DNA from: a virus
Lineage: Duplodnaviria; Caudoviricetes
Strand: one strand, 5' to 3'
DNA length: 64,000 bases
IMG/VR virus record: IMGVR_UViG_3300017722_005389
Below are positions 4,562 through 61,054 of the stretch, piece after piece. Position 1 is the first letter of the stretch; each line of letters begins with the position of its first letter. The translations under genes were made by a program, and so were the position numbers. The notes below the pieces were generated by a model. That model ran no database searches, was not told the origin of the DNA, and worked only from the letters and a program-made list of their open reading frames with translations.

Positions 4562-5341
4562 ATGATTTTACTTACAGAATCACAATTAAAACTATTAGTA
4601 GAACGTCAAGGTGATTTGGATTTTATTAAAACTTCAAATGAAATTTTTAATATTCTTTTTAAATTTACAAATTCTTTAGATGAAATTAAAAAAGATGGAT
4701 TACTCAGAAACGCTTTGGCAAACTTCCAAAGTAAGTTTCCTGAAATTTCTTTAGAAACCAAAAGAAGAAATCAAAAAATTGCGGATGTAATTTTGAAATA
4801 TACCATAAACTCAGAAGATTATTTTACTGAATTTGAAAATAAAGAACTTTCTTTTGAGATTTATTTTATTACCAATAAATTCAGATCTTATGGAGTTTAT
4901 GATGAACAGGGAATTATAAAAATTTATTGTGAAATGAATTCTTTAAAAGAATCATTTTCAGAAGCGTTTTTGAAACGTAAAGGTGAATTATCGCATGAGC
5001 TGAAACATTTTTATGACGATCAAAAAACAAAATTTAAAGCAAGTTCTAATTACCAGTATGCACCATCAAGATTGGTAAAAGGAAAAGAGAAAGATTTGAT
5101 GACAAAAAAATATTATAATCAGGCTTTTGAAAAAAATGCCTTCTTCACTACAATTTTACAAAAAGCAATTGAAATTTATGATTCATTGAAAGATGAATAT
5201 GGCACAAAAAATGAAGCGATCAAAGCTACATATAATGAATTAGAAGATTATATGGAAAGTCTTTATGATGATGGTTATTTTTCTGCAGACATAAAAAGAT
5301 ATATGCTTTCGAGGCTTTATACTTCTTTGGAAAAATTATGA
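4562..5341 (+). CDS. Leader-bearing protein with zincin HExxH motif
   Basis: Start re-called to MILLTESQLKLLVE (track 4511), TATTTATA at 4548; LSHELKH. Confidence 0.65.
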   Translation: MILLTESQLKLLVERQGDLDFIKTSNEIFNILFKFTNSLDEIKKDGLLRNALANFQSKFPEISLETKRRNQKIADVILKYTINSEDYFTEFENKELSFEIYFITNKFRSYGVYDEQGIIKIYCEMNSLKESFSEAFLKRKGELSHELKHFYDDQKTKFKASSNYQYAPSRLVKGKEKDLMTKKYYNQAFEKNAFFTTILQKAIEIYDSLKDEYGTKNEAIKATYNELEDYMESLYDDGYFSADIKRYMLSRLYTSLEKL

Positions 5342-9004: not shown

Positions 9005-9436
9005 ATGAAGTCTATTAAGATTACTGAAGAGGTTTATAATAAATTACTTTCGGAGAAAAAAAAGAAGCGAGATAGATGTCTCAGAATTGCCGATAGAGTG
9101 TATGATAAACCTTCTTCATATAAATCAGGTGCTGCTGAAAGATGTAGACAAGGTAAAATTTGGAAGGGATTAAGTGAAGATTATATTAAAAATTTGATTA
9201 ATGAAATTATTTCTGAAGATGAATCTCTTCACAAATGGTTTTCAAGAAAGGGGGCTCCAGGAAAATCTGGTGGATGGGTAGATTGTAATACATGTAGAAA
9301 CGTTGATGGAAAAACAAAATGCAAAAGTTGTGGAAGGGAAAAAGGAGAAACAAGAAGTAAGTATCCATCTTGCAGACCTACACCTGGAAAATGTAAAGAT
9401 ACTGGAAAGGGAAAAACTTGGGGAAAAACAAAATAA
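9005..9436 (+). CDS. Leader-bearing basic Cys-rich protein
   Basis: TATTTATA at 8990; MKSIKITEEVYNKLLSE; second Glu site then L.KWF..GGWVDC..CGR..KYP.C.P module. Confidence 0.7.
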   Translation: MKSIKITEEVYNKLLSEKKKKRDRCLRIADRVYDKPSSYKSGAAERCRQGKIWKGLSEDYIKNLINEIISEDESLHKWFSRKGAPGKSGGWVDCNTCRNVDGKTKCKSCGREKGETRSKYPSCRPTPGKCKDTGKGKTWGKTK

Positions 9437-9455
9437 TTTTTAAACATCTTTCAAA

Positions 9456-9926
9456 ATGATAAAAGCATTTGCTTCAGTAGAAAGGGAATTTGTGGAAGAT
9501 TATAAATTTAATGCTGACGAATATTGCTTTTTTGATAACCCTGAGTCTGCAAGAGAAGATTTAGAACCCTTTAAAGAAGATGAAGATTTGGCATATGTGA
9601 TCGAAGTTGAAATTTACGCCAAAATGTTTAATATTTATGACAGAATTCATAGAAGTAAATTGTATACATCTTTACCCCAAAAAACCAATGTAGGAAGGTT
9701 TGTAATAAATAAAGATAGCCTCATTTGTTTTCTTATGGGAGATTTAAATAGAGATTCAGAAAATTTAGAGGTAAGTGATAGCACAGATAAGTTATTTTCT
9801 TTATCAATAAAAAATGCAATACAAGAATTAGGATATGAAGGTTATGTTTCGATGTTTGAATCTTTATCGAAATACACTGTATTCAATCCAGATAAACATG
9901 TAGACGTTATAAAAGTTTTTATATAA
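9456..9926 (+). CDS. Possible degenerate ART-PolyVal-like protein
   Basis: FF.N...A, GYEGY, YTVFNP resemble the ART-PolyVal C-terminus. Confidence 0.35.
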   Translation: MIKAFASVEREFVEDYKFNADEYCFFDNPESAREDLEPFKEDEDLAYVIEVEIYAKMFNIYDRIHRSKLYTSLPQKTNVGRFVINKDSLICFLMGDLNRDSENLEVSDSTDKLFSLSIKNAIQELGYEGYVSMFESLSKYTVFNPDKHVDVIKVFI

Positions 9927-9928
9927 CT

Positions 9929-10171
9929 ATGGAAAGGTTTAACAAAAGAATATTTGGCAATTTTTCAAATAATATGGCAATTATAAAGAAAATTGTAAAT
10001 CAACCAAAGAAAATTTTAAATTCTGAGGAACCTTCTTTAAAGGAGGAAATTGTTATTGAAGAATCTATTATTGAAAATGTCACTCCCATTGAAGAAATAG
10101 TAGAAGAAAATGAAAAAATTATCACTTCTGAAGAAAAGCCTAAAAAAGGTCGTAAAAAAAAATCTGAATAA
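9929..10171 (+). CDS. Acidic/basic low-complexity hypothetical protein
   Basis: E-rich core, KPKKGRKKK tail. Confidence 0.55.
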   Translation: MERFNKRIFGNFSNNMAIIKKIVNQPKKILNSEEPSLKEEIVIEESIIENVTPIEEIVEENEKIITSEEKPKKGRKKKSE

Positions 10172-10209
10172 TTTTTCTACAAATTTAAAAAAGTTTAAAA
10201 AATATTTCA

Positions 10210-10217
10210 TACCTTTG
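10210..10217 (+). promoter_or_regulatory. Bacteroidota sigma70-type -7 box
   Basis: TACCTTTG upstream of 10237. Confidence 0.6.
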
Positions 10218-10236
10218 TTGAAAATAAATTTAAACT

Positions 10237-10626
10237 ATGAAAAATTTAACTTCATCATCAAACAGAGGAACTCATAAGTTTTCTGAAGGAGATTTTATTT
10301 GGAATGCTTCAGAAAAAAAGAAAGGTGTCTTTCACAAAGATATCGATGGAAATTCATTTATTTCTTATGGTAAAAACTATATATCGTTTAATGTAGATTA
10401 TTCTATAATTGAAAGATATATGCATCAAGATAACTTTCAAATGTTTTCATTAAAATCTAAAGTAGTACATTCTTCTAATGAGATTGTTATGACTACTGGA
10501 AACGCAAAACATAATTCTTTTGAAGGCATCAATCTTTTAACTGGAGAAACAAAATATTTTTCTCTGGAGCGTAATTGGACTGATATAACAAATGATTATC
10601 ACATGACCTTAACAAAATACTTTTAA
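10237..10626 (+). CDS. Hypothetical protein
   Basis: ORF behind host-type promoter. Confidence 0.65.
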   Translation: MKNLTSSSNRGTHKFSEGDFIWNASEKKKGVFHKDIDGNSFISYGKNYISFNVDYSIIERYMHQDNFQMFSLKSKVVHSSNEIVMTTGNAKHNSFEGINLLTGETKYFSLERNWTDITNDYHMTLTKYF

Positions 10627-47963: not shown

Positions 47964-48060
47964 AGTCCTGTGGCGGAATTGGTAGACGCACCGAAAGGTA
48001 GGAACGGTATGGAACCCGATTAAATAATCCTAATTACAGGTTCAAATCCTGTCAGGACCA
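47964..48060 (+). tRNA. tRNA-like RNA, class II (Leu-like D/T arms), non-canonical anticodon arm
   Basis: GTCCTG/CAGGAC acceptor, TGGCGGAATTGGTAGACGC D-arm, ACAGG-TTCAAAT-CCTGT T-arm; ACCG/CGGT stem with 11-nt loop; ends ACAA not ACCA. Confidence 0.65.
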
Positions 48061-57011: not shown

Positions 57012-57851
57012 TCAATAAATTTCATCTAAGTCGATTCCGTGAGTTTCATACCACCATTCTTTTGACTTATTAGAATGTTTATCCTTTAATCTGTTATATC
57101 GTTCCAAAATTTTGTTTTGGCGTTCAATTTCATTATTAAAAAACTCATGTTCTAATACTTCTCTACACTTGTATATTTCACGAAGTATTTTACGTAAAAC
57201 ATAACCTTGTTTTAGATTAGAGGGTATATAACCACTTTCTATAATTTTTAGAGCCGTATCTTTGAGTGTTTCAACTTTATCTATTTTTTTACCATTGACA
57301 AACATTTCAAGTCTTTCAAGCCCAAATCCAACATCAATACAATTATCAAGTGGGTTGACAATATTACCAATTTCAATACCATCAACAAAAAATTCTGTAC
57401 AATAACCTCCTATTTCACCATCGCTCCAATGACAGTTTTCATCGTCTACTATTACATCCTCAATGCCCAGTTGATTATAATATCCAAGCCACTCTTTTCT
57501 GTCACTATGAATTGTAACATAATCGGGTGTAATACCTATTTTTTTTAAGAATGTAACCCAAAAGATAATAGTATCTTCAATAGACATCTCTCTGAATGAG
57601 AATAACCCAATCATATTAAAATAGAGCAAATGGGATAAATCGCCTATTTCTTCAAAGTCATTCATTCGAATACAAGCTTGAACATTTGAAACAGTATTTT
57701 TATATTCGCTATCTTTGAATTGACATTTGAATTTTTGCATTCCTGCAGGGCAAAACAAAGTTGTATTGTCATAAGGATTTACTTTGTTTTCAATGCTAAA
57801 GAAGATATTTTTTTCTTCGCAAAATTTTTGGTATTCTTCAATAATATTCAT
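57012..57851 (-). CDS. Stand-alone alanyl-tRNA synthetase aminoacylation domain (minimal AlaRS)
   Basis: TLFCPAGMQ.FK, VQ.CIR.ND...IGD..H..YFNM.G.FSF, NCHWS.G..GG.C.E, EIGN.V, ID.GFGLERL, SN..QGYVLR...R. Confidence 0.85.
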   Translation of the reverse strand: MNIIEEYQKFCEEKNIFFSIENKVNPYDNTTLFCPAGMQKFKCQFKDSEYKNTVSNVQACIRMNDFEEIGDLSHLLYFNMIGLFSFREMSIEDTIIFWVTFLKKIGITPDYVTIHSDRKEWLGYYNQLGIEDVIVDDENCHWSDGEIGGYCTEFFVDGIEIGNIVNPLDNCIDVGFGLERLEMFVNGKKIDKVETLKDTALKIIESGYIPSNLKQGYVLRKILREIYKCREVLEHEFFNNEIERQNKILERYNRLKDKHSNKSKEWWYETHGIDLDEIY

Positions 57852-59480: not shown

Positions 59481-59798
59481 CTAAAGTACAAAACAAGGTA
59501 CTGAAACTATATGTCCAGCTTCATTTCTTACAACAGCTGGATGTCCAGTTGCAGGTGCAAGACAATCAGTTCTCCCTTGAAGCTTTGCAGCTGTCAGAAC
59601 CACTGCTGAAACTATAAAGAAAGTTCCCTCTGCTGAATCGGGCAGGTCTTGAACTGTCCCAAACACTTGGGAACAAATTCCGTTTTCTATTTCAGAGAAT
59701 GTCGCAGAAACTCTTGCAACAGTCCCAGATTTTACAAATACTGTCCCATCGTTGAAAACGATATCGTGTGGGGTGCAATTGATGAATGTAGCAGTCAT
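59481..59798 (-). CDS. Conserved phage protein (N.TPH family)
   Basis: INCTPHDI, SG.VARV, LP....T..IVS, R.D...P, R...G.I. Confidence 0.7.
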   Translation of the reverse strand: MTATFINCTPHDIVFNDGTVFVKSGTVARVSATFSEIENGICSQVFGTVQDLPDSAEGTFFIVSAVVLTAAKLQGRTDCLAPATGHPAVVRNEAGHIVSVPCFVL

Positions 59799-60059
59799 AG
59801 TAGTAAAGATTTAAATGTTAATAAAATTTTTCAATGCTGCTTTGCCTGCAATGGGTTTAGTGTGAAAAAATACGGGCTTTAGGGTTTCCCACTCCCTTTT
59901 TTTTTATTTTATAAACAAAATCCCGATTTTTTCTTTGACTTCTTTATATTCACGAAATAGTCTTTTTAGTTTTAAAAAATAAATTGGTGGCGTATTAATT
60001 ATTTCACGCCTTAACTCCCAATATCTATCAATTAGTTTATCCATTCAATTTTCTTTTTG

Positions 60060-60450
60060 CTTCAAACAAATCAAACATTTGCTCTCCAGTTAGCGATAAT
60101 GTAATCCTGCAGCCATCTGTATGAGTGCCTGTTATTTCATCTTCCCTCTGCACTCAGTTGTAATACTAAATAATGCTTGTATTTCTACACACTATTCATT
60201 AGAAGGTTTTCGTTTTATACCTCATAGATTACAACTGCTCACCCTTGGGAACTGATTAACTTACATACTCAAGGTTGTCATCCTTGTACTGTTCCTGAAG
60301 ACTTTACAGGTTTCACATTATGTAATTCATTCTGACTTGTGTAACAGTCTTATTAATCAGGTAGTTTCACATCTTAATAAGACATTCACTACTTTAAGTG
60401 AGTTGTGGTGCATTAAAAAGAGCAGTTTGTCTACATGCTCAGATATACGC
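60060..60450 (-). ncRNA. Candidate large structured non-coding RNA
   Basis: ORF-free; nested perfect helices: 60123-128/60150-155, 60155-164/60228-237 (10 bp), 60270-274/60282-286, 60347-356/60374-383 (10 bp), 60386-390/60397-401, 60420-424/60436-440; GTGAAA loops on - strand. Confidence 0.55.
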
Positions 60451-60588
60451 AGAATATCAATGCCTTTCTATGTTCTTTAATAAATTATTGCGCATTAAAA
60501 TTGCAGAACCTAATCTTTCAATTTTAGTGTGAAAAAAAAGGGGGCAAATGCCAAAGGGAAATCGCCCCCCACTTCACTAATTAAAACA

Positions 60589-60915
60589 CTATATGGATGG
60601 AACTAAATTGCTTTTTAATACCTCTTGGATTCTTTCAACAACTTCCTTAGAATTTCCTCCAACATTCCAATGGGTTATTTTTGTTTTGGCTGTACCCTCT
60701 CTGCCAAGATAATTTTTGCCGTTCTTCCAATTATAGATGGTGGCAACAGTACCATCTTCGAATTGAATATACCATTCAGCATCGGTCTTATATCCCTCGT
60801 CTGATTGTGGTTTTCCGAAAATCTTTTTAAGTAAGCTGTACTCCGCATCAATGTAACCTTGAAAATGAGTTCCATTGACATCAATGTTTGACTTATTGTG
60901 TGTTACGAATTTCAT
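60589..60915 (-). CDS. Conserved phage protein
   Basis: Start re-called to MKFVTH; GT..QGYI...Y..L...FG.P, K...EW...F, TIY.WK, W.VGG. Confidence 0.7.
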   Translation of the reverse strand: MKFVTHNKSNIDVNGTHFQGYIDAEYSLLKKIFGKPQSDEGYKTDAEWYIQFEDGTVATIYNWKNGKNYLGREGTAKTKITHWNVGGNSKEVVERIQEVLKSNLVPSI

Positions 60916-61054
60916 AAGAAAATAAAATTTAATAGTGAGTGAATTAAACGACCTTACAAAGATACAACTTACATTTGGCATTTCAAAATTTTTCTTTAGA
61001 AAAAAACAAGGGCTTCAAAACTTTTTTTGCTTTCTAATGAAGCCCTTGTATATT

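Follow-up and report, generated by a model that had tools for sequence, protein, structure and literature searches.

A probable twister-type self-cleaving ribozyme with a large accessory domain at the head of a polymorphic phage gene cassette

The 64,000-nucleotide (nt) viral sequence IMGVR_UViG_3300017722_005389 (Duplodnaviria; Caudoviricetes), an IMG/VR record whose whole length we refer to as the window, contains a gap of ~790 bp flanked by two minus-strand genes (60589-60981 and 59481-59798, from the sequence and its listing of open reading frames, ORFs). An original prediction, made from the letters of the sequence, described this gap as free of minus-strand ORFs and as holding one large, ornate noncoding RNA, possibly of a new class. 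Our comparative analysis indicates that positions 60140-60440 of the minus strand probably specify a type P1 twister-type self-cleaving ribozyme, with an upstream P0 hairpin, a long P5 arm, and an accessory domain of ~150 nt, and that this RNA stands at the head of a cassette of ~646 bp. The cassette consists of the ribozyme, a gene remnant, a gene for a 46-amino-acid (aa) protein, and a terminator-like hairpin, and it lies between two genes that are adjacent in relatives. Type P1 twisters are documented by Roth et al. 2014, Rfam RF03160, a review (PMC5408937), and a large-scale assay (PMC11662667). They have the essential stems P1, P2, and P4, the optional elements P0, P3, and P5, two pseudoknots, a U/A cut site adjoining P1, an active-site guanine, and conserved bases in the loops L1 and L4 (PMC5408937).

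The window element belongs to a conserved RNA family. An exact-word scan of metagenomes returned one contig (L081). It has two blocks in common with the window, one of 116 nt (94% identical) and one of 24 nt, set among other genes, and the homology stops exactly at ...GCAGAGGG. Words from these shared blocks matched 7 and 41 viral contigs and later at least 120; a 23-nt word from the accessory domain is found exactly in 41 IMG/VR contigs and a 17-nt word from the 3' end in at least 120. A copy-specific word, searched exactly against viral contigs, gave no match. Alignment resolved four conserved blocks in a fixed order with three variable caps, and conservation begins sharply at UAAUGCAC and stops sharply at GCAGAGGG, a span of 272 nt in the window (60144-60415). 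Because the short units are without the whole middle part, the core of the RNA could be recognized: UAA, P2, a 5-bp hairpin with the loop UUCCCAAGG, a long hairpin, the 3' strand of P2, and GAGGG. A covariance model (CM R1) built from 35 short units gave 104 matches at E < 1e-5 in 100 loci, and 113 distinct units were parsed for core features. The window unit scores E 8e-33 with nhmmer and 49.5 bits (E 1e-9) with CM R1, the latter on its 3' half; neither blastn nor CM R1 with its filters off detected a second copy within the window. The 17-mer was also found at 20 loci in genome contigs, against an estimated ~70 expected by chance under uniform composition. Eight of these loci are real units by CM R1, all of them on contigs of metagenome-assembled genomes in bins from several phyla, and these contigs may be phage contigs. 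The matches in isolate genomes (Corynebacterium, Lutispora) were set aside as chance.

The original prediction had the strand and the structured character of this RNA right, in that a conserved minus-strand noncoding RNA does lie in the gap; its length was overstated, the real element being 60140-60440 and not ~790 nt. The proposed likeness to giant RNAs of the GOLLD and ROOL classes fell away with the length: the actual RNA is 272 nt plus the P0 hairpin, and most family members are 80 to 170 nt. If the gap were filled by a single ornate RNA of ~400 to 800 nt of this kind, or by the relic of a group II intron, its length and richness in helices would be accounted for; in other contigs, some units are also close to tRNA genes, which are frequent neighbors of GOLLD and ROOL. 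We give this explanation almost no credence. The conserved part has abrupt limits, UAA... on one side and ...GAGGG on the other; it is flanked by a nonconserved leader, the remnant of a gene, and a real gene for 46 aa; and none of the models for GOLLD, ROOL, and group I and II introns matched at E <= 10. The RNA has no GUGYG 5' end and no intron domain V or VI. The resemblance to GOLLD and ROOL is limited to a location in phage DNA, sometimes near tRNA genes; their consensus is unrelated, their models gave no match at gathering score or E <= 10, and they are much larger, about 580 to 800 nt. As predicted, the gap gave no RNase P, tmRNA, or tRNA signal, and a scan with Rfam matched no family there, even at E <= 10.

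Compensatory changes among homologues prove the RNA where stems alone would not. Folding of the window sequence is only marginally better than that of shuffles, with z scores of -1.69 (minus strand) and -1.97 (plus strand) for 671 nt and -2.02 for 300 nt, and 7 of 200 shuffles fold as well as the 300-nt core. In 26 full-length units, RNAalifold recovered four helices with compensatory changes in 15 of 34 pairs. In an alignment of 99 distinct units (A5), 94.2% of cells are paired, compared with 84.7% in shuffles (0 of 500 as high), and double changes occur at 21 of 28 pairs (4 of 5 in P1, 3 of 5 in P2, 5 of 7 in P4, and 9 of 11 in P5); A5 was fitted to the model, so these pair counts lean to the model's structure, and this tempers their weight for our reading. 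The covariation score of A5 is 0.289; shuffles gave 0.125, none of 500 reaching the observed score, and slid controls did not exceed 0.067. P1 was compared with mismatched flanks: at least four contiguous pairs form in 13 of 34 units, against 7% under the null, and none of 5,000 permutations reached the observed value. Flanks covary, for example, as UUUACUU/AAGUAAA and AUUUGU/ACAAAU. G-U pairs are frequent on the model strand (UG in 30 cells at one P1 pair; also in L093 and L095), and because these would be A-C mismatches on the other strand, the RNA is read from the minus strand of the window.

The elements of the window unit can be followed from the 5' end. A P0-type hairpin, GAGCA-11 nt-UGCUC (60420-60440), which was among the stems predicted originally, lies directly upstream of P1; P0 is an optional upstream hairpin of twisters (PMC11662667), and by eye such upstream hairpins recur in several family members. 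The ribozyme proper extends from the 5' to the 3' strand of P1 (60140-60419; nhmmer, CM, alignments A3 and A5), with UUUU at 60416-60419 pairing with AAGA at 60140-60143, as is consistent with the family-wide covariation of P1. Family conservation begins with UAA, which directly follows P1 in 111 of 113 units, the window's included. Twisters cleave at N/A beside P1 (PMC5408937, PMC11662667), and the predicted cleavage site is accordingly placed between U60415 and A60414, with A60414 as the candidate general acid. The 5' strand of P2, UGCAC (60408-60412), pairs with GUGCA (60149-60153) and shows compensatory variants (UGCG/CGCA, CACA/UGUG; fifth pair C-G to U-A). In L2 (CACAA, 60403-60407), C60407 together with C60408 is the candidate NC strand of the pseudoknot PK1/T2, facing GG at 60243-60244. 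The 5' strand of P4, CUCAC (60398-60402), pairs with GUGAG (60238-60242), with more than 15 compensatory variants in the family. The loop L4 (60243-60250) reads UCCCAAGG, and its CCC (60247-60249) pairs with GGG (60144-60146) to form the second pseudoknot, T1/PK2. P5 (60155-60237) is a covarying 10-bp stem, CAGUUGUAAU/AUUACAACUG, with a 63-nt variable cap, and is the first of the two perfect 10-bp inverted repeats originally reported (CAGTTGTAAT/ATTACAACTG; 60155-60164/60228-60237). Finally, the 3' strand of L1 (60144-60148) contains G60148, the candidate general base, followed by A60147 and the GGG of T1. In alignment A4, CAGA and the last G do not vary, and the middle G hardly does. The core bases of the window are identical to the family consensus, and a single-sequence minimum free energy (MFE) fold of the window RNA reproduces P2, P4, and P5, together with the helices Pc, Pa, and Pb of the accessory domain.

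We infer a twister fold from the correspondence of these elements with those of known twisters. The order is the same: P0, P1, the N/A site (here U/A), P2, an L2 starting with NC, P4/L4, an optional P5, P2', G-A-GGG, and P1'. The G-A-GGG order presumably equals that of the rice twister. Candidate twisters are recognized by NC for PK1, NA at the cut, an A as the general acid, and a G as the general base (PMC11662667), each of which has a candidate here. Rice twister has CCGGUCCCAAGCCCGG as its P4/L4 (PMC11662667), and its L4, UCCCAAGC, compares with UCCCAAGG, preceded by (U), in the family. The family L4, closed by P4, thus bears the conserved twister bases U-CCC-A-A-G-N, and in 31 of 113 units an inserted domain interrupts the 5' side of the loop. 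Both have a pseudoknot between the CCC of L4 and a 3' GGG, and that of the family covaries: the triplets are CCC:GGG in 94 units, CCA:UGG in 12, and CAC:GUG in 7. The parse retained only units with pairable triplets, so the evidence lies in the three coordinated classes; a looser parse placed the same three classes on top. Twister-sister (RF02681) resembles twister in having a multistem junction and a conserved A 3' of the cut and in a vague sequence likeness, and its consensus lacks evidence of a pseudoknot and is cleaved in the opposite loop strand (PMC5408937), whereas the family has its covarying L4-L1 pseudoknot; the Rfam model RF02681 did not match the family. In view of the helices, loop sequences, and pseudoknot that map onto twister, the originally suggested new RNA class is probably not what the gap contains.

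The accessory domain is the largest departure from this plan. It occurs in 31 of 113 units, where it measures 67 to 290 nt, and occupies 60251-60397 in the window, between the 5' strand of P4 and L4. In the family it consists of Pc (GURG with CYAC), an internal loop AUAUAAAGA/UGAAA, and the helices Pa and Pb, each with a variable cap. The window keeps Pc, in which GUAG (60389-60392) pairs with CUAC (60361-60364), and Pb, in which CUGAUUAA (60353-60360) pairs with UUAAUCAG (60252-60259); both covary in the family (GUGG/CCAC to GUAG/CUAC in Pc; for example, AUGAUUGA/UCAAUCAU in Pb). Pa is a mini-hairpin at 60370-60383 in the MFE fold, and the variable cap V2 spans 60260-60352. The conserved word AUGUGAAAC recurs in degenerate form within V2 (60310-60318, compared with 60364-60372), which suggests an internal partial duplication. 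Placed at L4, the domain could be a stabilizer or a regulatory module. That it might be a sensor for a metabolite, protein, or RNA, which would make these units natural allosteric twisters switching the processing of early or accessory cassettes, is a speculative idea that we consider quite unlikely to be right.

The cassette headed by the ribozyme is polymorphic among close relatives. Using the proteins of the two flanking genes to locate related IMG/VR contigs, we found ~646 extra bp in the window (59877-60522, minus strand; blastn, alignment A1). The insert is absent from L001, L002, and L004, whose flanks are 94 to 97% identical, and from the more distant L003, and in all four the flanking genes are ~125 nt apart. 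A 15-nt direct repeat, TTTTTTCACACTAAA, borders the insert (left copy at 60523-60537, right copy at 59856-59870, both on the minus strand), and the relatives have one copy only. The repeat is the tail of the terminator of the upstream gene 60589-60981, a terminator-like hairpin GGGGGGCGA...UUUGCCCCC with a U run (60532-60570) that is conserved in L001 to L004. Gain of the insert by recombination is the parsimonious reading; its loss from the relatives through recombination between the repeats is also conceivable. On the minus strand, the insert contains a leader (60441-60522) for which no homologue was found, the structured RNA at 60140-60440, the gene remnant, the 46-aa gene, and a long terminator-like hairpin, AAAAAAUCGGG...CCCGUAUUUUUU, which closes it (59865-59932; MFE fold and sequence). 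The cassette is reminiscent of the PeSL elements of T4-type phages (Arbiol et al. 2010), reportedly mobile cassettes of promoter and terminator through which small early genes are shuffled. It is like them in being a small accessory unit with repeated regulatory flanks, present or absent among close relatives, and unlike them in having a ribozyme at one edge and a repeat that is a terminator tail.

Several points weigh against an active twister in the window. None of the twister models of Rfam 15, twister-P1 (RF03160), twister-P3, or twister-P5, matched at E <= 10, nor did any other Rfam 15 model, whether the window, full units, mini units, or a compact 78-nt unit was searched; a genome search with RF03160 likewise produced nothing relevant. 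P2 behaves as five Watson-Crick pairs (the fifth C-G in 100 units and U-A in 12) and not as the canonical four, and because the first C of the candidate PK1/T2 covaries with the 3' strand of P2, this pseudoknot is not established; its candidate dinucleotides are CC/GG in 89 of 113 units, UC/GG in 12, and the mismatch CC/GA in 6, where twisters have GC/GC. P0 hairpins have been reported to reduce twister cleavage (PMC11662667). We found no precedent in the literature for a large twister domain 5' of L4, and the domain in the window is the most divergent of the 31, with UGAAU in place of AUAUAAAGA and Pa shrunk to a triloop hairpin. Most of the remaining stems reported originally, which are present in the sequence as described, are specific to the window copy, namely the second 10-bp repeat, GTCTTATTAA/TTAATAAGAC (60347-60356/60374-60383), GAGTGC/GCACTC, GGAAC/GTTCC, and TCACT/AGTGA, and they vie with the conserved Pa/Pb, P2, L4, and P4; CAAGG/CCTTG sits within a variable cap, and the GTGAAA words are likewise present. 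Lastly, the recurrent early promoter/5' untranslated region (UTR) word, which has 24 matches between 52 and 64 kb of the window where 5.9 are expected, is absent from the insert, and no promoter was identified there.

The first of these points would also be expected of a new class of three-helix pseudoknotted phage RNA that became twister-like by convergence and has another activity or a structural role. Such a class would account for the absence of Rfam twister matches and for the departures in P2 length and PK1, as well as for P5, which is present in every unit at 40 to 166 nt with a nearly invariant 10-bp base, makes members far longer than classical twisters, and is accompanied by no P3. 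We consider convergence very unlikely. All elements from P0 through P1' follow in twister order, 7 of the 8 L4 bases match twister, and the T1 partners coincide (PMC11662667; PMC5408937), and it is unlikely that all of these features would have converged together.

The accessory domain raises a different possibility, in which the RNA derives from twister and either does not cut or cuts on a signal, the domain (Pc/Pa/Pb with the loop AUAUAAAGA/UGAAA) being the functional part that binds a protein, an RNA, or a small molecule and the core serving as a scaffold or switch. Conservation of the accessory block exceeds that of most of the core, as is illustrated by a 23-nt word identical in 41 contigs, and the block is inserted exactly at L4, which both pseudoknots need. 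Units with a broken T1 (L081 778-886, L110 3669-3750, and L122 11074-11190) coexist with intact ones, and the five pairs of P2 and the unclear PK1 are compatible with a core that does not cut. Against this stands the fact that 82 of 113 units are without the domain and keep every core base; the core is therefore under selection in its own right. T1 and the candidate catalytic A and G either hardly vary or covary, and the domain of the window is the least canonical of the 31. A noncutting or signal-dependent RNA is thus unlikely in our assessment, and self-cleavage by a twister-type core is the reading that we retain. Degenerate-looking units occur at the three loci just named and at L083 268-434; in these, the 5' strand of P4 is missing or CCC:GGG is broken (for example, ...GCAGAGAAA), they stand beside intact units, and from their sequence they probably do not cut.

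For the window copy specifically, the element might be a decaying passenger, a recombination relic that came with the cassette and is neither transcribed nor active. It abuts a truncated gene in an insert without the early promoter word, its core faces competition from copy-specific stems, the accessory domain is irregular, and close relatives do without the insert. We regard decay as highly improbable. Every core position is still consensus, P1 pairing has been kept with a new 3' flank (UUUU/AAGA), and Pc and Pb are retained with matching partners. The insert would probably be transcribed by read-through or from an unrecognized promoter. The same word, CACTATTAAAA, occurs with one mismatch at 60927-60937 (minus strand), inside the listed ORF 60589-60981, and homologues of the product of this ORF align only from residue ~20 on; since the word falls within the listed ORF, the true start of the gene is probably a downstream ATG.

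Contrary to the original prediction, the gap is not free of ORFs on the minus strand. Immediately downstream of the ribozyme is a 3' remnant (60037-60144, minus strand), the final 36 codons and the stop, of a phage gene for 81 aa; L063, L065, and L078 have this gene intact (intact proteins P0013 and P0014). The remnant is 87 to 88% identical in nucleotide sequence to L063, L064, and L065 and 84 to 86% identical to L078 and L079, and all of these matches begin at the same point. The remnant lacks ~45 codons from the start of the gene and is broken exactly where the ribozyme has its 3' end. The 46-aa gene (59904-60044, minus strand) shares 8 nt with the remnant, the same overlap as in the intact loci L063, L065, and L078; it has homologues in 12 protein clusters at 73 to 95% identity and no Pfam or PHROG match. 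The upstream neighbors of its homologues differ between contigs. Across this gene alone, L072 to L077 are 97.6% identical to the window in nucleotide sequence, and because this identity is limited to the gene and has sharp edges, it suggests a very recent modular exchange. The region 60145-60522 (378 nt), which holds the helices originally reported, has no match in the loci carrying the 81-aa or 46-aa genes.

Other coding explanations for the gap were discarded. A recoded gene is not compatible with the presence of all three stop codons in every frame on both strands, and no alternative code opens a long frame. A group I or II intron splitting the 81-aa gene was rejected since tblastx did not find the missing 5' part upstream of the RNA, and the MSY codons at 60378-60386 are coincidental. 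The plus strand is open over the conserved block, but the 7 base differences from L081 would cause 6 amino acid changes, and a protein search with this frame gave no match.

Across the family, units are intergenic, with only 2 of 113 lying within an ORF on the same strand. They are mostly co-oriented with their neighbors: in 87 of 113 cases, a unit and the first ORF downstream of it share a strand. Median distances to the adjoining ORFs are 205 nt on the upstream side and 137 nt on the downstream side. More than one unit is present at 12 of 99 locus-strands, and some are adjacent. At L100 (9882-10469, minus strand), for instance, three units lie between two genes, two short ones of 139 and 144 nt and a long one of 249 nt, the last two being 1 base apart; multiple units are also found in L090, L095, L096, L110, L112, L184, L217, and others. 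Enrichment in the vicinity of phage genes and of other ribozymes has been reported for twister and hammerhead ribozymes, and the family shares with twister this tie to phage DNA and to neighboring ribozymes (PMC10085705). A riboswitch-like role, or sequestration of a Shine-Dalgarno sequence by the 3' GAGGG, was rejected in view of the varied distances to start codons (median, 137 nt), the units beside units, and the lack of a coupled start codon.

Further observations were made at individual loci. At L088, a 142-kb phage contig (duplicate locus, L082), a unit is followed after 104 nt by a tRNA with a UUA anticodon (4636-4713, plus strand), which ARAGORN calls an ochre suppressor; this hints at stop-codon recoding in that contig. 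In L107, a ribozyme unit is interrupted by a gene for a 174-aa GIY-YIG endonuclease (9505-10029, minus strand; PF01541, E 2e-9): the 5' half of the unit is at 10083-10250 and its 3' half, which is degenerate, at 9385-9505. The conserved ribozyme DNA may be a homing target. Elsewhere in the window, Rfam reports a 97-nt tRNA at 47964-48060 (plus strand; 37.3 bits) where ARAGORN reports none; the sequence might be a tRNA interrupted by an insertion or an intron, or else an element that resembles a tRNA. A 279-aa protein encoded at 57012-57851 (minus strand) matches positions 5-181 of the 552 in profile PF01411 (E 1e-20), the N-terminal portion of class II alanyl-tRNA synthetase, and by this match the gene is a truncated alanyl-tRNA synthetase-like phage gene. 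No similar DNA to the window was found among GenBank phages in a search in distant mode, a 734-aa window protein has no GenBank phage relative, and eight large window proteins match no Pfam family; the phage belongs to an uncharacterized lineage.

We propose the following mechanism for the ribozyme. The region would be transcribed together with its co-oriented neighbors, and L4 (UCCCAAGG) would dock onto the 3' G-A-GGG strand through T1, after which the chain would cut itself between U60415 and A60414. The upstream mRNA would be left ending in the P0 hairpin with a cyclic phosphate, the downstream cassette RNA would begin with a 5'-OH and a compact fold, and the fates of the two would thereby be uncoupled. 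The most likely role would thus be the separation of the cassette RNA from the upstream mRNA by the predicted self-cleavage.

As judged from sequence comparison, the family represents a large twister-type subfamily, invisible to Rfam, and a new structural variant in uncultivated phages. For annotation, what had been an ORF-free gap becomes four parts, and a model is at hand for marking such elements. These proposals can be tested by virtue of the covariation in P1, P2, P4, P5, and T1, the co-oriented small-gene context, and the polymorphism among near-identical phages. Twisters are common, and the family gives a setting in which to ask what ribozymes do in phage transcripts.

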